A stretch of 64,000 nucleotides of DNA from Escherichia coli (GTDB lineage: Bacteria; Pseudomonadota; Gammaproteobacteria; Enterobacterales; Enterobacteriaceae): assembly GCA_025336685.1 (NCBI GenBank), contig GCA_025336685.1_4717.1; one strand, written 5' to 3'. Shown piece after piece: positions 11,037-45,016 of the stretch. Position 1 is the first letter of the stretch, and every line of letters begins with the position of its first letter. A model generated the notes under the pieces. That model saw only the letters and a program-made list of their open reading frames with translations. It was not told the origin of the DNA and did not search any database. The translations under genes and the position numbers were made by a program.

Positions 11037-13109
11037 ATGAGGCTTAAGAATAGCACGCCTCGCGCGATTTTTACGGGCTTTAAAGAGGGTCTTACCACGG
11101 ATCCGGTTACAGCCCCAGAGATCACGCCCATTCACCTCCCGTATGTATTCATTCAGGGTGGTCGTGGTAAAGAGGACACCTTGCTGTTAACAGGGGACGC
11201 CCTGTCTACAGTTTACGGTGAAGATATGCTGAACTACCGTAGTAAGTACGCTTCTCCAGCAACACTGATTGCTCGCCAAGCTGCTTCTACGGGTAGCGCG
11301 ATCTTCACAAAACGTTTGGTTGCGCCGGATGCAACGGCAGCACGCCTCCGTATCGGTGTTGAAGTGGTCGCCGATAAACTGGTCGTTTACCAGCGTAATG
11401 CTGACGGGTCTTTCAAAAAGGACACCGCCGGTAACAAAATCCCCGACGGCGATAAAACCGTTGATGGGTTGAAACTGCGTTGGGTTGTTAACCACGACAA
11501 AGATGCTGAAACGCCGAATGTTTTCGGTAAAGATGAAGTGGTTATCGGCCAACTGACGGCAACTGACGGTACCCAGAGTAACTACTATCCTATTCTGGAT
11601 GGGTTAGTAAGCTGGCGTGGTGCTGACGGGGATAACATCGGCGTGCGTTTGGAAGCACCGACCGCGCTGAGCAGTAACCCTACCCGTACCGATATTATCG
11701 AACGCATCGGTGCTTTCCTGTACCGCATCCAGTTCGTGGAACGCAAGTCTTCACGTACTGCGCCGACAGTCATTCGTACAATCAGCGGTATGGAACAAGA
11801 AACCTTCGCACTGCAGGAAGGTGTTATCCAACCTGATGATGAAACCGATCTGTCCTTCGGTAAAGTGGTCGTTGACGCCTACGAGTATAATGAGACGGGT
11901 AACACCCCGATCTTTGCTCCGATGGATCAGATGCATCTTTATCAGAAGAACATCGACGAAATCGTCAAGAAGCTGTACGAATCTGAAAGCAAAGCTAACA
12001 ACGATCTGTTAACCGACGTCGAATTCGTCGAAGGCCAGATGAACATCTTCACTGGTGTTGATTACAACGGTATTCCGTATCAAACCATCGAAGTTCTCGA
12101 TGCGGATCAGGGCGGCGCTATCTTCGATGGTACCAGCACCTTCTACGCAATCGATGGTAGTGATGGCGACGTAAGCTGGGATACCTTCGATGCGTTAGCG
12201 AAGCAGCAGTTCGAATCGTTCGGCAACATGGGTGAAGACCTGGAAGACATGGCTTTCTATCCGTTCTCTATTGTGTACGACATTGGTTACAAAGTCGACA
12301 CGAAGAAAGCGATGGCGAATGTCTTGTCTCTGCGTCCTGACGTCATGATCATTGCATCAACCCACACCTGGAAGGGCGTGGAGCTGAACGTCGACGAAGA
12401 AAGCTCCATGGGTGCAATGCTGCGTAACTACTACCGTCTGCATCCAGAAAGCGTGCTTTACAATACCCCAGCCTGTCGTGCTGCTGTGTTCATGCAATAT
12501 GGCGAAAGCATCGAAGCGCCAAGCCTGGGTAAAGTTCCGCTAACGCTGGAAGTTGCTAATAAACTTGCAACGTACATGGGTGCTTCAGATGGTGTTATCC
12601 GCGGTACCCGCATCGATAACAACCCTGGTAACGTTGTCACAACGATGCGTAAAATCAACAAGACGTATCGTAACGCAACGGTCCGCGATCGTGATTGGGA
12701 AAACGGCTTGAACTATGTTCAGACCTACAACCGTAATTCCAACTTCTTCCCGGCTTGGGGCACGATCTACAATAACGACCGTTCGGTATGGCGTTCGTTG
12801 ATCAACGTGATCATCGGCTGCGATCTGACCCGTGTGTGTTATCGTCTCTGGGCAGAAACCACCGGTACTACAGGAATGGATGAAGCGCTGTTCCTGAAGC
12901 TGATGGGTGAACGCTTCCTGGAATACACCACGGGTCGTTACAACGATCACGTGACCGTTAAAGGACGTTTCTACCTGGATAAAGAAGACGGTTACAACGG
13001 CTTCAGCTATCACGGCGATATTAGCCTTATCGGCGATCCGGGTATGACCGTGGGTACGTTTACCATCACCGGGCTGCGTCGTAACACCGAAGCAGCAGAA
13101 GCGGCGTAA
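11037..13109 (+). CDS. putative contractile tail sheath protein
   Basis: 690 aa, close to the ~695 aa sheath of phiKZ-type phages (from memory); followed 15 nt later by a ~300 aa ORF and a strong terminator; AAGGAGAG SD. No sequence alignment was possible. Confidence 0.55.
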   Translation: MRLKNSTPRAIFTGFKEGLTTDPVTAPEITPIHLPYVFIQGGRGKEDTLLLTGDALSTVYGEDMLNYRSKYASPATLIARQAASTGSAIFTKRLVAPDATAARLRIGVEVVADKLVVYQRNADGSFKKDTAGNKIPDGDKTVDGLKLRWVVNHDKDAETPNVFGKDEVVIGQLTATDGTQSNYYPILDGLVSWRGADGDNIGVRLEAPTALSSNPTRTDIIERIGAFLYRIQFVERKSSRTAPTVIRTISGMEQETFALQEGVIQPDDETDLSFGKVVVDAYEYNETGNTPIFAPMDQMHLYQKNIDEIVKKLYESESKANNDLLTDVEFVEGQMNIFTGVDYNGIPYQTIEVLDADQGGAIFDGTSTFYAIDGSDGDVSWDTFDALAKQQFESFGNMGEDLEDMAFYPFSIVYDIGYKVDTKKAMANVLSLRPDVMIIASTHTWKGVELNVDEESSMGAMLRNYYRLHPESVLYNTPACRAAVFMQYGESIEAPSLGKVPLTLEVANKLATYMGASDGVIRGTRIDNNPGNVVTTMRKINKTYRNATVRDRDWENGLNYVQTYNRNSNFFPAWGTIYNNDRSVWRSLINVIIGCDLTRVCYRLWAETTGTTGMDEALFLKLMGERFLEYTTGRYNDHVTVKGRFYLDKEDGYNGFSYHGDISLIGDPGMTVGTFTITGLRRNTEAAEAA

Positions 13110-13124
13110 TGAGAGGAGTCCATA

Positions 13125-14015
13125 ATGCGTCCTGATAATACCCTACTCGGTGAACAGGGTGTTGGTGCTCTTAGCAACGCGGCTATGGTCGATATTCGTG
13201 CAGGTGCCCAAAACGGGTACATCAGCAATATCGGTACGTACGTTGCTAACGCCAACTACATTCCGAACCAAATGTTCTGTCTCCTGCTGGAGGCACCACG
13301 TGGTTTCAACTATCTACCTAACCCGGATGTACAGATTGGTTATCTGAAGGCGCTGGTAGAAGAGGTTGCGCATTCGATTACCGGTCTGCAACGCGGATTG
13401 GAAGTTGAATTCGTTAGCGTCCCGGTTTCTGGTTCCGGTGAAATCCAGGAAGAAGTCTCTGACGTTAAACGTCCTCGCTCTAACCCGACTTTCGGGATCT
13501 ATGAGAAAGAAGGTCGTTCCGTTAGTTACTTCCTGGAACAATGGATCACGTATCTGTTGATGGATCCGGATGCCAAATATCCGATGTTGTCGTCTATCGT
13601 ATCCACCGGTGGTCCAACCGACCTGCTGGCGGATTATCGTAGCGCAACAATGCTGTTCGTTGAGCCAGACCGTCAACACAAGAAAGTGGTTAACGCCTGG
13701 CTGTGCACGAACATGATGCCTCACGGTACCGGTGACTGGACATCACGTCGTAACAAGAACGATGCGCCAAACGTGGTAGAATTGAGCATTCAGTTCACTG
13801 CGTTAACACAGACCAACTACGGCGTGCGTGCTTTTGCACAACGTCTGCTGGATAAGATGAACCTGCTTAAAGTGAACCCGGATTTCCGTCCGGCTTATCT
13901 GAGCGACATCGATCCTGCTGTGGCAGCGCAGAAGGTTGGCTACACCTTCGACTTTGATAACAGCGATACCTTTGAGGTACCGAACGCTTATCAAAACGTA
14001 ACACCTCGCGTGTAA
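13125..14015 (+). CDS. putative tail tube protein
   Basis: 296 aa ORF immediately downstream of the putative sheath; GAGAGGAG SD 7 nt upstream; strong terminator after the stop. Confidence 0.45.
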   Translation: MRPDNTLLGEQGVGALSNAAMVDIRAGAQNGYISNIGTYVANANYIPNQMFCLLLEAPRGFNYLPNPDVQIGYLKALVEEVAHSITGLQRGLEVEFVSVPVSGSGEIQEEVSDVKRPRSNPTFGIYEKEGRSVSYFLEQWITYLLMDPDAKYPMLSSIVSTGGPTDLLADYRSATMLFVEPDRQHKKVVNAWLCTNMMPHGTGDWTSRRNKNDAPNVVELSIQFTALTQTNYGVRAFAQRLLDKMNLLKVNPDFRPAYLSDIDPAVAAQKVGYTFDFDNSDTFEVPNAYQNVTPRV

Positions 14016-14040
14016 CGTAAAAAAAAAGCATATTAACCTC

Positions 14041-14090
14041 CCTTCCTTCCCCGGCCTTGATGGCTAGGGAAGGAAGGTTTATGGTTTATT
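14041..14090. terminator. bidirectional intrinsic terminator (stem CCTTCCTTCCC / GGGAAGGAAGG, loop CGGCCTTGATGGCTA, then TTTATGGTTTATTT; A9 run on the other side)
   Basis: Read directly; sits between convergent genes 13125..14015 (+) and 14090..14629 (-). Confidence 0.75.
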
Positions 14091-14629
14091 TACTGTTTGT
14101 TCTTAGCTTCGCGAATGAAAATAACGTCAGGATATTCTTGAGATTCAATGAATTCAGGATTACGATAACGACGAATATGACGCATCGCCGTACAGGCAAG
14201 TTTGTAAAGATGTTCCTCCTCACGTTGCGTTAATAACATCAGCTGTGTGTCTGGAATCACGAATGGAAGTCTTTCATTCACATATTCCCGGAGGTCATCG
14301 AGATCATCATGATGAATACCCTCTGAGAGTTTATATAACGCTTCCAGCAGTTCTAATCCGCCAAACTGGTAACTTCCTATTGTCGTCTTAAACAATGCGC
14401 CAGAACGCGTGGTGGATGCTCTATCGGCAACATCGTACTGTTCCAACACATATCCGTAGACCATGCTACGTCGATCCAGTGTATCTGTAACGAGATTACG
14501 CCATCGTTCCAGTCTTTTGAGCGCCTTGTCGATAGAGTAAACGATCATGCCGTGCTCATCTAACTCTTCTGCGATACCCATTAGTTCGGTGTTGTTCGGT
14601 TTTGCTGCGCCGATAAGAAAAACACTCAT
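14090..14629 (-). CDS. hypothetical protein (179 aa)
   Basis: ORF track; 1-nt overlap with upstream DUF488-like gene. Confidence 0.5.
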   Translation of the reverse strand: MSVFLIGAAKPNNTELMGIAEELDEHGMIVYSIDKALKRLERWRNLVTDTLDRRSMVYGYVLEQYDVADRASTTRSGALFKTTIGSYQFGGLELLEALYKLSEGIHHDDLDDLREYVNERLPFVIPDTQLMLLTQREEEHLYKLACTAMRHIRRYRNPEFIESQEYPDVIFIREAKNKQ

Positions 14630-15090
14630 TACTCAAACTCCTTATTCCAAAACTCGATTAACGAATCGAGCTGTTCCTTACTGGTTATCTCACCTCCCTT
14701 AACAAAATGAAATCGTTCTTGAATCGCGATCTTTTCAAGGATATCGGTAAGCAAATGACGATGACAGAAATTTCCTGCAGGACAATAACACCCTAACACC
14801 ATAACCGGATGGGAGAATAAAGACAACCATTCCGATGTATGATCAACAAAGCTTTTACGCATGAGTGCGTAGTAGCCTGCGGTATATTCATCCTCGGTTA
14901 ACGTTTTTGATTTGATTCCTGTAACAAGTTCCCATGAAGGTGCGTAGAGCGGGTTACCTGTTTTCACCGTTGTGTCCAGTAGGAACGCCCGTGTGTCTGA
15001 AAGCCAACGATATTTAGCTAATTGAAGGGTGTATAAAAACATAGCACTAACCCCCAAAGGATAAAAATAAAACCTTAACATAACCACCAC
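14629..15090 (-). CDS. DUF488-like protein
   Basis: 153 aa; C-terminal motif VMVLGCYCPAGNFCHRHLLTDIL matches the remembered LLCxC...CHR..L signature of DUF488; upstream APSWEL resembles the family's APS.eL segment. Recalled from memory, not searched. Confidence 0.5.
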   Translation of the reverse strand: MVVMLRFYFYPLGVSAMFLYTLQLAKYRWLSDTRAFLLDTTVKTGNPLYAPSWELVTGIKSKTLTEDEYTAGYYALMRKSFVDHTSEWLSLFSHPVMVLGCYCPAGNFCHRHLLTDILEKIAIQERFHFVKGGEITSKEQLDSLIEFWNKEFE

Positions 15091-15147
15091 CGCAACCCCA
15101 TTACAGGGCTACGGTGGGGTCATACAGAGAGACGTGTTATGTTACAA

Positions 15148-15627
15148 TCAGTCTTTCAACAGCTCGGCTGCATACGCACTGATGTTGTCGCGAATATGCT
15201 TAACCTGAGTTGTCGGGAAAGATTTCTTATACGCGGTGGTCAGACGTCCGTAAACCTGTTTCTTCTCGTTAGAGCCGAAACCAACTTCAGCGCTACGTTG
15301 AACTGTTGCAGACACAACGTCTTTGCCCAGCGGCAGCGTCACAGAAACAACGTCAACCTGCTTGTTATCCGCCATGAACTGCGCGCCAACACGGCCAACC
15401 GCCAGACCGTGAGCCAGACCGATATCGGTGGTCAGTTTCTGTGCTTTTTCCAGGATTTCTTTTTCTTCCGGCGTTACCAGAGTACCCAGGAAATCACTGC
15501 CCAGCTTCTGGCTACCTGATTCGTCCAGTTTGAGGCCAGCGGCGATTTTATCAGAAAGGGCCTGAACTTCCGGACGTACGTTAGAAGTGGTTTCAGTTGC
15601 TACGGTGGTTTCTACAGCTTCAGACAT
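15148..15627 (-). CDS. hypothetical protein (159 aa)
   Basis: ORF track; preceded by CTATATTAC promoter-like motif at 15751..15759. Confidence 0.5.
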   Translation of the reverse strand: MSEAVETTVATETTSNVRPEVQALSDKIAAGLKLDESGSQKLGSDFLGTLVTPEEKEILEKAQKLTTDIGLAHGLAVGRVGAQFMADNKQVDVVSVTLPLGKDVVSATVQRSAEVGFGSNEKKQVYGRLTTAYKKSFPTTQVKHIRDNISAYAAELLKD

Positions 15628-15750
15628 GTTAATACTCCAATTAGTTTTTTCGATCGATCAAAAGGATAAAATCAGAAGATTCTTTCTTCATAGGGAAAAC
15701 ACAAGTCGGTTAAGGTTTACTTCTTAAACTCCTTGCGTTCTATCAGTTAG

Positions 15751-15759
15751 GTAATATAG
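15751..15759 (-). promoter_or_regulatory. promoter-like motif GGNCTATATTACC (copy 1)
   Basis: Exact 9-mer CTATATTAC on minus strand with GG two bases upstream, about 125 nt upstream of the 15627 start; same motif recurs at 23736, 40045 and 53165. Confidence 0.35.
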
Positions 15760-15762
15760 ACC

Positions 15763-16560
15763 TCAACTTTTTTCCAATAATGCCGCAACGTTCCGCGCGA
15801 AACGAATAACTTTGTAATTGCGGGTTTGTTTGACATCTTCTCCATCACTATCATCTTCGGACGGATCTTCCCACATGAAGTCTTGTTCGTCCGCTTTCTG
15901 TAAGTAGTGGTATAACTGCACCATGCTGCGTGCGGTTGGAGAGATAGCGCGAAGTTCGTCTAAATCTTCATCGGTAAGCAGAACATGCGGTGAACGCAGT
16001 GGTTCCATTGCCGTATTACACAGCAGACGAATAAGCAGATCGACACACGGAATAACGGAACTTGGTGAGGCGATTTCTGGGTGTAGTGTATAACCCCAGT
16101 ACACGCTGTTAAAATAGGCCAATACCGCAGGTAGTGAAGGATGTTCCATCACACGACCAATTTGCTGTCTTACAATAGATGCACGATCGTTCAGTACATC
16201 GAGAGTAATTTGTTGCGGTTCCATAACAGCGAGTGACATACCGTACGCATCGGCTACGCCAAGGATTTCATGAAGAGCCGAACGCTCTTCTTCTGCGGAT
16301 GTTGTCCCGATCGCTTTACGTCCAGCAAGTTCGATTAGCATCGGTGAAACAGTTTCTTTAACCTCGTTTAAAGAAGCCTGGTAAGCATGTTTGTGAAGGT
16401 ACAGTGTCCACGCTAATGCGCGCTCAGCTGCATGAAGCAGATCGACATAAGACTGTTCTTGATAGCATGGTCCGTACACGCTCACCGCAAGCTTGGTGGC
16501 TTTCTCGGAAGCTTGCATAATAGCATCAGGTGATTTAGGCATATCGCGTTCTTCTTGCAT
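15763..16560 (-). CDS. hypothetical protein (265 aa)
   Basis: ORF track. Confidence 0.5.
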   Translation of the reverse strand: MQEERDMPKSPDAIMQASEKATKLAVSVYGPCYQEQSYVDLLHAAERALAWTLYLHKHAYQASLNEVKETVSPMLIELAGRKAIGTTSAEEERSALHEILGVADAYGMSLAVMEPQQITLDVLNDRASIVRQQIGRVMEHPSLPAVLAYFNSVYWGYTLHPEIASPSSVIPCVDLLIRLLCNTAMEPLRSPHVLLTDEDLDELRAISPTARSMVQLYHYLQKADEQDFMWEDPSEDDSDGEDVKQTRNYKVIRFARNVAALLEKS

Positions 16561-16662
16561 CTTTTAAATTCCTACTTAACAATAAAGTTTATATACGGCG
16601 TATGTATCCGTAGAATAATGAGTTCTGGTAAGATCTTACATCAAAATGACGGCATAAAAAGT

Positions 16663-41409: not shown

Positions 41410-42111
41410 TTACTCTCCAGCTTCACCGGTTAACATCTGCATATCGGGAGACGTTTTAATTTTCTTCTCGTACTCTTTTGTTTGTTTGAATACCAATTCA
41501 CCGATTTCTTCCAATTCTTCAACGGTGACGGTATGCAAATAAAGCAGCGGAATAATCCAGGTATTCGCACGAAGCATGTCCTGAATATCGTCAACGGTGG
41601 GTAACTCCGTAAAGAACTGTTCGTCTACCGCAAATAAATCCCGTGCGATACCATCCACCAGTTTATGATCGCTTTCATGGATCCATGCAAAACTTTCAGC
41701 AAGATGGTCAACAAGCATACTGATGTCATCGTCCGTTGAGAACACCGTACGACGAACGTGTGTTGTGAGGTCCATCGTAAAACCCATTAACGAAGGGGTT
41801 TCTTCAGAACGGAGTTCACGCCAAAGACGAAGCATGTTTTCGGGGATAAACAAATCATGGATGAACGTTACGCTGAATTTCGTAATCCAATCACGAATTG
41901 TCGCACCTCTGGAATACTGTTGCGGTGGAGAATACAAATACACCCAACGTTTCGTAAACGCGATAACTTCCTTTCGCATCGCCGCATCTAAAACAAGCAC
42001 GTAACGATCGGAAGCAAGCTCTTCTAACAAAAGCTCGAACGATGTATCGCTCTCTGGGGAGAACGATCGTTTTATTTCTGCGATACGTCGTGATAGCCGA
42101 CTACGTAACAT
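41410..42111 (-). CDS. hypothetical protein (233 aa)
   Basis: ORF track. Confidence 0.5.
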   Translation of the reverse strand: MLRSRLSRRIAEIKRSFSPESDTSFELLLEELASDRYVLVLDAAMRKEVIAFTKRWVYLYSPPQQYSRGATIRDWITKFSVTFIHDLFIPENMLRLWRELRSEETPSLMGFTMDLTTHVRRTVFSTDDDISMLVDHLAESFAWIHESDHKLVDGIARDLFAVDEQFFTELPTVDDIQDMLRANTWIIPLLYLHTVTVEELEEIGELVFKQTKEYEKKIKTSPDMQMLTGEAGE

Positions 42112-42113
42112 AA

Positions 42114-42788
42114 TTAGCCCTCATCAAGGTTATTCTGGAGATGCATTGCGGTGAGAATAACACCAACTGCCGAAACCGATTTTGCCTTGCTGTCTTCGGG
42201 TAGCTGTTCCAAGCTTACGGTACCTGTTTCTAACAGCATGCGGTTCATCGCGTTGAACTTCTTATCGTCGCCACCACGAGCCTGCATTAACTCTCGGTTC
42301 ACGTTCGGCATCGATCGTCCTAACGTCGCTTGCATTTCCGGCTGACTCCAAGTGGAACCTTTACTATCACCCGTCGGCTGATTGGTGAGCTGGTCCTTGG
42401 TGTTGTTGTTTTTCGGAATCGATATTTTAGCACTCAACGTTTCGGCTTGTCGGCGGTTTGGAATCAGGTACAATCTGGTTGGACGATCACGAAGCACCAA
42501 TTGTCCTGTTTTCTGATCGGTGAGATAAACGCGTTGGAAGAAAGGGAAACCGTATTTCTTGCCGACTTCCAGTGCGCGTTTTATCGTCACCTCGTTTTTG
42601 TTCATATTGGGTACCCAGATGGGTAGAATCTCTTTCTTATCCCGACATAAACGCATATACGCATCAAACGTCTCATCATCGATTTCAGCAAAACGTTTTT
42701 TGTAAATAGCGTAGGTCGGACTCGATCCCCCCACCAGGTCTTTGATATACCCAAGAATGAATTTTTCTGCTGCAGCGCGGTTGGACAT
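42114..42788 (-). CDS. hypothetical protein (224 aa)
   Basis: ORF track. Confidence 0.5.
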   Translation of the reverse strand: MSNRAAAEKFILGYIKDLVGGSSPTYAIYKKRFAEIDDETFDAYMRLCRDKKEILPIWVPNMNKNEVTIKRALEVGKKYGFPFFQRVYLTDQKTGQLVLRDRPTRLYLIPNRRQAETLSAKISIPKNNNTKDQLTNQPTGDSKGSTWSQPEMQATLGRSMPNVNRELMQARGGDDKKFNAMNRMLLETGTVSLEQLPEDSKAKSVSAVGVILTAMHLQNNLDEG

Positions 42789-43192: not shown

Positions 43193-43513
43193 TTATCTTC
43201 CACCGCGCAATGACTTTACGTTGCGTGCAATAAAGGGTGCAACGTAATCACGGAAATTATGGATCCATCCTTTAATGGGTTGATTGTCTAGTAAGCACTC
43301 TCGCACCGAGAACGTACTTACTTCTAGTACACCGAACTGCAATCGCCAATAACGATTGATTTCGGCTTGGGCGTGTTCTAAAGTCATGTACTCAGGAACA
43401 CGAGCCAGCAGATCGTGTTTAAATTGCTCGGCAATCGCTGGCTGATGCGATGCAATTGTCTGTGCGATAACATCAACCAGTTCGTGCGCGTGCTTGATAG
43501 CAGGTGCGGTCAT
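43193..43513 (-). CDS. hypothetical protein (106 aa)
   Basis: ORF track. Confidence 0.4.
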   Translation of the reverse strand: MTAPAIKHAHELVDVIAQTIASHQPAIAEQFKHDLLARVPEYMTLEHAQAEINRYWRLQFGVLEVSTFSVRECLLDNQPIKGWIHNFRDYVAPFIARNVKSLRGGR

Positions 43514-43525
43514 TTATTCAGCCTT

Positions 43526-45016
43526 TTATTTTTTGCTTGGACGATTTAATGCAGGTACCGGGTTCTTTGGTTGCTTTGTCTTTTCATCCATCCAGTACGG
43601 GAAGTACTCACCGGTACGCATACGCAATAAGTCCATTGTGGACAAGAACGGTAGCGGGTTAGGATCATCCAGATATGTCCAGTAACCGCGTGTGTTTAAC
43701 AACACATCCCAATCGAATCCTTTTGCTTTAAGATCGTCGTACAGTTCCTGCGGGGTGCAATACAATTGCGGATTTTCGTAAACCTCTTGACGCCAGAGAT
43801 TATGCATCTGACATAGCTCCGACGTAATTTCCAGAGCACGCTGTAAATACTCATCTTCTTCGCAGAGGGAACGAATGGTTGTGCGCTGTAACGCAACATC
43901 CGGATAAATATCCAAATACACCGTTGAAGCACCATCAGCTGACTTACCACCTGATGCATGCATACCCCAACCACGCATCCAATCTTTATCACGTAGGTAG
44001 TGGTATTCTGTTAATGATGGTTTAACCCCCTCGCTCTGACTAACCACAATCGGGAACGGTAAGCCGGTGGGTCCGTTTTTAGCACGCATGTTGAAGACTT
44101 GGATCATCTGTAGATCGGTATCACCGATAAGGTTATCACCAGGTCCACGCGGATAAAGAACGCGTTTATCGGTGTTCTGAAGAATCGTCAGTTTATCGAT
44201 TTTCCAGAGGTTATTCGTATAAAACGTGAAGCGTTCCGGGACGTTCTTAAACTTCTCATCGCCCTTAAACCCTTTCAGTTTTCGTACCGGCTGCTGTCCT
44301 GGCATACCACCAACGTTTACACCGTCACCGAGGTGGGCGGTCATGGTAATGTAGATACCAGCTGACGCTGTGAGTACCGGCATCTGTGATAGAATCTGGC
44401 TTTTCGCTGCTGCCGAACGCATCGCTTCAGCATTCAGTTTTGCACCACCTGCGGTTTCTTTATCAAACAGTGCGTCAACGGCATCGATTGGTAATCCAGA
44501 GAAACTGTCGATGAGTACGACGGTCGGTAACCACCAGGTATAGTTCTCACCATGTTTATTAATGAACGGAACAGCTTTGCGTTGGGATTTATCTTTGACC
44601 TTGTCGTCACGGAATTTCTTAATCGCATCAAACCAAATGTTACCACTCATCTGAACAGCATCGGTGATAAACACACGTTCTTCTTCGAAAAGATCGACAC
44701 CCGCGATATTAGACATGTTCATCGCAAGCGTTAAGATACGTGTTGTCGTTAACGACATTTCTGTATCGTAAACGCTACTATTGCTGTTCGCGTAACGATC
44801 AATAACACGTAACAAGCGAAACATTATGAACGTGGTTTTGTTCATGTTGCCGCGAGCGCCTGCGCCCTCAACAAGCATCATACCGCCGTTACAAATGCTT
44901 TCACCGTGTTTACCGACATAGTACCGACCACCAGATGTGGGAATATCCATTAAGCAACCAATGTTGAGATTAAAACGCATCTCTTCACCGGGAGAAAGGT
45001 ACTTATTAAGATTCAT
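43526..45016 (-). CDS. RecA-fold ATPase (RecA/UvsX- or DnaB-like) with non-canonical P-loop
   Basis: 496 aa; P-loop-like VEGAGARGNMNKTTF (NK instead of GK); Walker B-like VVLIDSFSGLPIDAVDAL; ETAGGAKLNAEAMRSAAAKSQIL resembles the RecA segment GDSHMGLAARMMSQAMRKL. Confidence 0.4.
   Translation of the reverse strand: MNLNKYLSPGEEMRFNLNIGCLMDIPTSGGRYYVGKHGESICNGGMMLVEGAGARGNMNKTTFIMFRLLRVIDRYANSNSSVYDTEMSLTTTRILTLAMNMSNIAGVDLFEEERVFITDAVQMSGNIWFDAIKKFRDDKVKDKSQRKAVPFINKHGENYTWWLPTVVLIDSFSGLPIDAVDALFDKETAGGAKLNAEAMRSAAAKSQILSQMPVLTASAGIYITMTAHLGDGVNVGGMPGQQPVRKLKGFKGDEKFKNVPERFTFYTNNLWKIDKLTILQNTDKRVLYPRGPGDNLIGDTDLQMIQVFNMRAKNGPTGLPFPIVVSQSEGVKPSLTEYHYLRDKDWMRGWGMHASGGKSADGASTVYLDIYPDVALQRTTIRSLCEEDEYLQRALEITSELCQMHNLWRQEVYENPQLYCTPQELYDDLKAKGFDWDVLLNTRGYWTYLDDPNPLPFLSTMDLLRMRTGEYFPYWMDEKTKQPKNPVPALNRPSKK

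Follow-up and report, generated by a model that had tools for sequence, protein, structure and literature searches.

A DUF488-N3a Protein and a Clade-Specific Orphan Encoded Next to It in a Goslar-Like Jumbo Phage

Two overlapping genes on the minus strand of the 64,000-nucleotide stretch of DNA analyzed here (the window; contig GCA_025336685.1_4717.1) encode a DUF488-N3a protein of 137 residues (gene A, 14629..15042, stop codon 14629–14631 included) and, directly downstream, an orphan protein of 179 residues (gene B, 14090..14629). To judge by profile matches and conserved motifs, gene A is a standard, unremarkable member of the known, phage-dominated and biochemically uncharacterized DUF488-N3a family, and its pairing with gene B is clade-specific, confined to the Goslar-related clade. 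Our best explanation as a whole, which we consider reasonably probable, is that of a two-gene unit bracketed by terminators, in which A would be a small Cys/Arg enzyme and B a clade-specific accessory. Region 13000–16600 shares 94.5% DNA identity with Escherichia phage vB_EcoM_Goslar, a nucleus-forming jumbo phage, and this identity marks the window as DNA of a Goslar-like phage of the same kind (chimallivirus). An earlier note on this DNA, made without database searches, had placed the pair in a phage, as is borne out here, and had read the overlap of the two genes as a sign of a two-component accessory function, which is weighed below.

Gene A Belongs to the DUF488-N3a Family

Gene A passes the gathering cut-off of the Pfam family PF22751, DUF488-N3a (36.7 bits, E 5.9e-9; cut-off 27 bits), and a protein identical to it, P0001, has a precomputed PF22751 annotation. 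The score against classic DUF488 (PF04343) stays below the cut-off (14.8 bits vs. 22.2, E 0.045), there was no match to DUF4326 (PF14216) at E <= 1, and the profile phrog_2450 is matched with E 4e-32. The DUF488-like protein announced by the earlier note is thus real and belongs more exactly to the DUF488-N3a subfamily. The CxC...CHR motif named there is present as well, in the stretch GCYCPAGNFCHR, which holds C85-Y-C87...C93-H94-R95 in the numbering of the 137-residue protein; the codons of the whole loop, C85-Y-C87-P-A-G90-N-F92-C93-H94-R95, lie at 14769..14801 on the minus strand, as computed from the start at 15042. That DUF488 has no established function, as the note remarked, likewise applies to DUF488-N3a, which has no biochemically characterized member.

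The protein is 94.9% identical to Goslar YP_009820904, and its counterparts include phiKZ gp151, PhiPA3 gp174, Erwinia phage RAY gp175 and Goslar gp215. Homologs with 35–49% identity were found by tblastn in 292 phage records, chiefly jumbo phages and mostly phiKZ-like, Erwinia, Serratia/Klebsiella, Salmonella, Xanthomonas and Vibrio phages. When 5.8 billion proteins were searched with a profile, 535 relatives were returned; among the 120 listed, nearly all are annotated as PF22751. These relatives are mostly stand-alone proteins of about 120 residues, many of them from contigs of 200–316 kb, and include PA7 gp221 (P0071), which carries the UniRef name "PHIKZ151". All 109 aligned relatives match PF22751, 29 of them also DUF488, and 25 weakly DUF4326.

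To compare viral and cellular occurrence, A loci were located with a degenerate DNA motif scan. Applied to IMG/VR, the scan gave at least 120 loci, all true family members; applied to 185,579 prokaryotic species, each represented by a single genome, it gave 41 loci, about 22 of which are real, most on contigs of metagenome-assembled genomes. From this imbalance the DUF488-N3a family is essentially viral. It should be noted that the 72 "core" chimallivirus genes of Prichard et al. (2023; PMC10299810, supplementary table) do not include it.

Some further observations concern the spread of the domain. Vibrio phages account for 92 of the 292 tblastn matches. A 43-residue BFVD entry, ICP1 ORF154, matches only the C-H-R helix region, and phrog_10021, with 43 positions, matches residues 82–120 of A; in phages of the ICP1 type, the gene seems to be present as truncated copies or as fragments. 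Among PADLOC profiles, A weakly matches PDC-M45C (E 0.0028), which is part of a candidate defense system of bacteria; this suggests that DUF488-like domains may occur on the side of host defense too. Within the window, the reading frame at 41410–42111 shows weak similarity to A (E 0.009) without Pfam support and was rejected as a relative.

Predicted Fold and Conserved Residues

The AlphaFold model of A, calculated from an alignment of 109 sequences, has a mean confidence (predicted local distance difference test, pLDDT) of 96.5. It predicts a compact four-stranded alpha/beta domain with the element order b-a-b...b-loop-a-b-a, in which strands span residues 2–7, 20–23, 80–85 and 114–119 with helices intervening, and a terminal helix spans residues 122–136. 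The conserved Cys/His/Arg loop connects strand 3 (80–85) with helix 5 (94–109). Such an arrangement, a Rossmann-like alpha/beta fold with a conserved loop between a central strand and the next helix, places A in the superfamily of cysteine phosphatase/rhodanese-type domains. Foldseek returned no significant match of the model in the PDB; the best fold match in BFVD is PhiPA3 gp174 (TM 0.81), followed by models of phage DUF488 and DUF4326 proteins.

Ten residues, Q7, P35, Y53, C85, C87, F92, C93, H94, R95 and G117, are invariant in all 109 relatives, and the nearly invariant positions include T5, R12, D23, T25, K27, G29, W37, K44 and E118. All of Q7, D23–K27, C85–R95 and G117–E118 are at the C-terminal ends of the four strands or just past them, on the face by which such folds usually bind ligands. 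From the model we infer that the conserved residues line a single pocket, and the C85–R95 loop is presumed to be the active-site (or metal-binding) element. A retains the C-x-C...F-C-H-R loop, the mark that separates the "active" from the "inactive" DUF488-N3 subclade.

Genomic Context and Domain Fusions

Two arrangements recur around gene A. In phiKZ and PhiPA3 the homolog directly follows a gene for a RecA/UvsX-like recombinase (gp152 followed by gp151, and gp175 followed by gp174), as it does in PA7, and in Vibrio phage BONAISHI it likewise stands after UvsX. In 21 of the 120 IMG/VR loci, the same strand carries a UvsX homolog no more than about 1 kb upstream of A, and the A proteins at these 21 loci share identities down to 32%. 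In the second arrangement, found in Goslar, RAY, LucasX, Eowyn and the contig L174, a gp214-like gene stands one to three genes ahead of A; the convergent tail tube and sheath genes are also close to A in Goslar, RAY and Proteus phage 10. The window still contains the block of the phiKZ type, on the minus strand and devoid of A: UvsX (43526–45016), a reading frame of 113 residues, a gp150-like gene (43193–43513) and a gene for a gp149-like subunit of the virion RNA polymerase (42114–42788). Because UvsX and the gp150-like gene are present here without A between them, A has been relocated in the Goslar lineage, and by the same comparison gp150, the gene that follows A in phiKZ, did not move with it.

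Three viral loci on contigs of jumbo size (226–272 kb) encode fusions of A to a NADAR domain (Pfam E 2e-42), in which DUF488-N3a and a C-terminal NADAR domain form proteins of 300 residues (L019, 2131–3036; L033, 3328–4230; L051, 839–1744; oriented to the plus strand). They probably explain the length of the phrog_2450 profile, 346 positions. Other fusions (L113, L120, L062/L152, L034, L086 and L042) join A to the palm and thumb of PolX, to DUF5131 (gp37/gp68-like) or to GIY-YIG/NUMOD, the last possibly a homing-endonuclease insertion or a read-through; in L034, L086 and L042, A is followed by C-terminal domains of 100–170 residues of unassigned family. One of these other architectures has a sub-threshold match to the ligase-like NAD+-binding domain Nlig-Ia. 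Among the fusion partners of DUF4326 in large viruses are NADAR, Macro and SLOG domains (PMC9503650), and the processing of terminal phosphates on the ribose moiety of ADP-ribose or of its breakdown products has been proposed (PMC9503650, PMC7824862).

The only functional data on the family are published knock-down phenotypes of the phiKZ counterpart: antisense targeting of phiKZ151 raised plaque-forming units (PFU) by about one order of magnitude, and its depletion strongly affected the transcription of the phage at 30 min (PMC12571901).

A Putative Cys/Arg-Loop Enzyme

In the most likely reading, gene A would encode an enzyme with a Cys/Arg loop that acts on a phosphorylated ribose or nucleotide moiety. 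The DUF488-N3a family belongs to the RapZ-C/DUF488/DUF4326 branch of the Rossmann-like cysteine phosphatase/rhodanese-type domains, and A, as a small enzyme, would bind a phosphorylated ribose or nucleotide-type group, with the Cys/Arg loop removing or transferring phosphate. Candidate substrates are molecules or adducts derived from ADP-ribose, or DNA/RNA ends, and A may act either in phage DNA metabolism, in recombination or repair, or against host immunity based on NAD+/ADP-ribose. A role in nucleotide or DNA modification or in anti-defense, as the earlier note had suggested, fits the fusions with NADAR, PolX and DUF5131 and the linkage to UvsX.

Several observations weigh against this reading. 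UvsX is not adjacent to A in the window, and the fusions are rare (NADAR in three, PolX in one and DUF5131 in one of the 120 loci). The canonical Cys-X5-Arg phosphate-binding loop is not found in A, in which the spacings are C85-X9-R95, C87-X7-R95 and C93-X1-R95. Catalysis by the "active" DUF488-N3a subclade, A included, is a predicted activity only, and the C-x-C-x5-C-H spacing would suit a zinc site just as well. The PFU phenotype was flagged for only one of the two antisense oligomers against phiKZ151 (PMC12571901). As regards gene B, the A–B order retained in the diverged contig L174 leaves a functional link between the two proteins possible.

The same loop can also be read as structural. 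A would then be a small zinc-stabilized adaptor without enzymatic activity, which binds nucleic acid or protein and modulates phage transcription or the fate of RNA; we regard this as unlikely, if the best of the alternatives. The spacing C85-x-C87-x5-C93-H94 is typical of a Cys3His metal site, the phiKZ151 knock-down altered phage transcript levels, and the closest solved natural fold is the C-terminal domain of RapZ. This domain is an RNA-binding adaptor within a larger protein and binds the small RNA GlmZ. Pfam, however, labels PF22751 "active" and sets it apart from an "inactive" sister family, PF22752; R95, D23, K27, Q7 and E118, invariant or nearly so, would line one pocket; and the recurrent fusion partners NADAR, PolX and DUF5131 are enzymes that act on ribose or DNA.

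Organization of the Two-Gene Unit

The open reading frames listed for this part of the window are 14629..15090 on the minus strand, with 153 residues from a GTG, and 14090..14629 on the minus strand, with 179 residues. The true start of gene A is probably the ATG at 15042, which makes the GTG reading too long: the 16 extra codons from 15090 fall within a strong hairpin (15087–15117), the homologs all start with M-x-[LV]-[YWF]-T-x-Q at the equivalent of 15042, and the Goslar annotation starts the gene at the same place. A GGGGG at 15051–15055 precedes this ATG.

The stop codon of A (TAA, 14631–14629) and the start codon of B (ATG, 14629–14627) share base 14629, so that the minus strand reads TAATG; this confirms the pair of overlapping frames and the 1-nt overlap of the earlier note. 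Direct reading of the junction (14627..14643, minus strand) gives AAGGAG-TTTGAG-TAATG, with the strong Shine-Dalgarno sequence of B, AAGGAG, at 14643–14638 within the last codons of A, then an 8-nt spacer and TAATG.

Hairpins lie on both sides of the pair. Upstream, between the gp214-like gene and A, a terminator scan found a terminator-like hairpin of 14 pairs followed by a U-rich stretch (15087..15117, minus strand); the RNA fold of 15043–15147, which contains it, has −39.9 kcal/mol (z −4.4). Downstream, RNA folds and direct reading of the sequence identify a bidirectional intrinsic terminator on both strands between B and the convergent tail-tube gene (14041..14077), with about −31 kcal/mol on each strand (z −4.9 to −5.2), with U9 after it on the A–B strand and a run rich in U after it on the opposite strand. 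Both hairpins are unusually stable, and that at 14041–14077, between convergent genes, has the textbook form of a bidirectional terminator. On account of the terminator-like hairpins on both sides and the TAATG junction, A–B looks like a bicistronic unit. In our proposal the two genes would form one unit of a Goslar-like chimallivirus, with terminators on either side and with B as a rapidly evolving accessory gene, co-transcribed with A and served by its own ribosome-binding site.

Just upstream of A lies the gp214-like gene (15148–15627, minus strand; 159 residues), the ortholog of Goslar gp214 and a match to phrog_9746. Its homologs, one to three genes upstream of A in many other lineages, include RAY gp173, LucasX_18, Eowyn gp194 and a gene on L174. 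Goslar gp214 is present in an estimated 865 or so copies per virion (2026 preprint, bioRxiv 10.64898/2026.04.21.720040, Table S4). In the Goslar RefSeq record, A is HOV27_gp215 and B is HOV27_gp216, each a "hypothetical protein", flanked by the tail sheath (gp218) and tube (gp217) genes on the opposite strand and by gp214, gp213 and the head maturation protease (gp212) on the same strand. Two Goslar numberings are in use and easily confused. The 2026 structure preprint follows the RefSeq locus tags (tail tube gp217, A gp215, B gp216), and Prichard et al. use the original one (tail sheath gp217, UvsX gp243); the two numbers of a gene seem to add up to 435, which would make A gp220 and B gp219 under the original numbering.

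The Pairing of A and B Is Clade-Specific

The earlier note had taken the coupling of the two genes as a pointer to joint function. In its full form, this idea makes A and B a dedicated two-component module, with B as a regulatory, inhibitory, targeting or substrate-presenting subunit kept at a fixed ratio by translational coupling. We consider it improbable, for all that several features speak for it. In the Goslar-like loci L131 and L132, TAATG and the internal AAGGAG are identical to those of the window though B is only 85–90% identical; the hairpins bracket A–B as a bicistronic unit; and B is under purifying selection. The closest non-Goslar homolog of A with a C-terminal tail, P0079 (52% identity), is encoded on the 2.2-kb contig L174, which has the order gp214-like gene, A, a 16-nt spacer and a B homolog of 187 residues (31% identity; hhalign probability 100%, E 5e-45). 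The retention of this order in so diverged a relative speaks for the pair. A C-terminal extension of A is found in both lineages that carry B, as a predicted helix here (122–136, without counterpart in most other lineages) and as a short tail in L174.

The distribution of B argues the other way. B is absent from 290 of the 292 phage records with A and, when its profile was run against all reading frames of the fetched loci, from 118 of the 120 IMG/VR loci; the two genes occur together in two phage records and two viral loci, and no co-occurrence across independent lineages was found. B adjoins A only in the Goslar-like phages and in L174. A second diverged B homolog, on contig L009, has only 47 nt of sequence upstream of it, and further B loci sought in IMG/VR and in metagenome contigs were Goslar-like copies only. 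Elsewhere A is followed by many unrelated families, of about 103, 110, 133, 176 and 185 residues, which reach an hhalign probability of at most 1.3% with B, and in Proteus phage 10 no gene follows A. By phmmer and hhalign, B has no homolog among the genes that follow A in RAY, PA7/phiKZ, LucasX, Eowyn, PhiEaH1 or L010, or in any cluster of first or second downstream genes; the comparison with the C-terminal domains of the fusions in L034, L086 and L042 was negative too. The pairing is not a general property of the family. Of the two findings that the earlier note had named as refuting it, a missing DUF488 match and a missing conserved pairing, half applies: the DUF488 match is sound, and the pairing is conserved in one clade only.

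Nor does the overlap speak for partnership: a stop/start overlap of A with the next gene is found in 45 of 112 loci, whatever gene follows, and a further 36 junctions fall within 30 nt. The A/B overlap is ordinary gene packing of a phage genome, and the junction in L174 is a 16-nt spacer, not an overlap. L174 also carries the gp214-like gene, so that an inherited syntenic block explains the order; since the order is kept there while A is 52% and B 31% identical, the gp214–A–B block predates the split of the lineages, with B evolving faster than A. A two-component function and an inherited block explain the synteny within the clade and the C-terminal extension of A equally well. In the mass spectrometry of purified Goslar virions, finally, gp216 was detected and gp215 was not found in the part of the table examined.

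Gene B Is a Genuine Orphan

B is 96% identical to its ortholog Goslar gp216 (RefSeq numbering; YP_009820903), and an IMG/VR contig of 237,533 bp encodes a protein 100% identical to it. No match was found in Pfam, PHROG, PADLOC or NCBIfam, in agreement with the earlier note, which had called the 179-residue partner unknown. Its relatives in the phage records and in a word-indexed search of 5.8 billion proteins are Goslar-like only, and an exhaustive HMMER search of 1.84 billion representatives added one real distant homolog, P0008 (184 residues, 30% identity over the full length). Two long repeat proteins from the same search, P0009 and P0010, were rejected as artifacts of low complexity or repeats. 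A borderline match among PDB sequences, UDP-GlcNAc 2-epimerase (E 0.014), fell to E 1.4 with the family profile and was discounted as chance. The possibility that B is a diverged or inactive DUF488 paralog was likewise rejected (hhalign probability of the A family against B, 0.2%). Structure prediction, proposed by the earlier note for both proteins, was informative for A and gave no usable fold for B, whose single-sequence AlphaFold model has a pLDDT of 39.8.

The ratio of nonsynonymous to synonymous substitution rates (dN/dS) among four Goslar-like alleles is 0.05–0.13, indicating purifying selection. With this ratio, the peptides of Goslar gp216 and the full-length homologs at about 30% identity, B is a real protein-coding gene, and it is best treated as a clade-specific orphan.

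The peptides come from purified Goslar virions (4 unique peptides, 25% coverage and an estimated 12–29 copies per virion in Table S4; bioRxiv 10.64898/2026.04.21.720040), and A–B lie between the tail tube and sheath genes on one side and the gp214-like, gp213-like and prohead-protease genes on the other, with the neighbor gp214 abundant in the virion. B, and perhaps A, could on these grounds be a minor virion or ejected protein encoded within a structural or late module, which we think improbable. The same table lists chimallin at about 126, PhuZ at about 171 and thymidylate synthase at about 20; as these non-virion proteins are found at equal or higher levels, the detection of gp216 would reflect expression rather than virion membership and may be carry-over. 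Moreover, gp216 is absent from the cryo-EM model and receives no mention in the accompanying text (bioRxiv 10.64898/2026.04.21.720040), and a hairpin separates gp214 from A–B.

A more elaborate joint scheme strikes us as quite improbable. In it, A would be a new kind of cysteine-dependent enzyme of nucleus-forming phages, whose action on nucleic-acid phosphates, either terminal or ADP-ribose-linked, would serve as a brake or checkpoint of infection (hinted at by the higher plaque yield of the phiKZ151 knock-down). Its C-terminal helix would dock the fast-evolving B as a lineage-specific regulator or targeting subunit, and the unrelated small genes after A elsewhere would be analogous partners that sequence comparison does not recognize.

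Significance

The DUF488-N3a family is one of many conserved protein families of nucleus-forming jumbo phages without an assigned function, and the Goslar copy is now tied to phiKZ gp151, which has knock-down phenotypes. The linkage to UvsX, together with the NADAR, PolX and DUF5131 fusions, leads to a testable hypothesis, the processing of ribose- or ADP-ribose-linked phosphates or of nucleic-acid ends. The two-component claim matters only if an interaction of A and B is shown, and the interest of the A–B locus is modest.

Comparison with Known Systems

The wider relatives of A are found among small Rossmann-like domains. A "RapZ-C-DUF488-DUF4326 clade" was reportedly defined by Burroughs and Aravind in 2023. 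The C-terminal domain of RapZ (PDB 5O5S, 5O5Q) and the Rossmann-like superfamily of cysteine phosphatases and rhodaneses (e.g., PTEN) have the loop placed as in A, which differs from the cysteine phosphatases in lacking their canonical C-X5-R loop. DUF488 proper (PF04343, e.g., E. coli YeaO) and DUF4326 (PF14216) share the C-x-C...C-H-R element with A; by hidden Markov model A is a member of neither and forms a sister subfamily to both. Fusion to NADAR is common to DUF4326 (PMC9503650) and to the A family described here.

Gene B has its likeness in two metagenomic proteins, P0008 and the 187-residue protein of L174, with full-length homology at about 30% identity. The closest known counterparts of A are the PF22751 members phiKZ gp151, PhiPA3 gp174, RAY gp175 and Goslar gp215 (PHROG 2450), which share with it a length class of about 120 residues, the same predicted fold and the same set of invariant motifs, namely Q, D-T-x-K, C-x-C...F-C-H-R and G-E. 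Unlike most other lineages of PF22751, A of the Goslar lineage has the additional C-terminal helix (122–136), and it adjoins the tail and gp214 genes, whereas the members of the phiKZ type follow UvsX.

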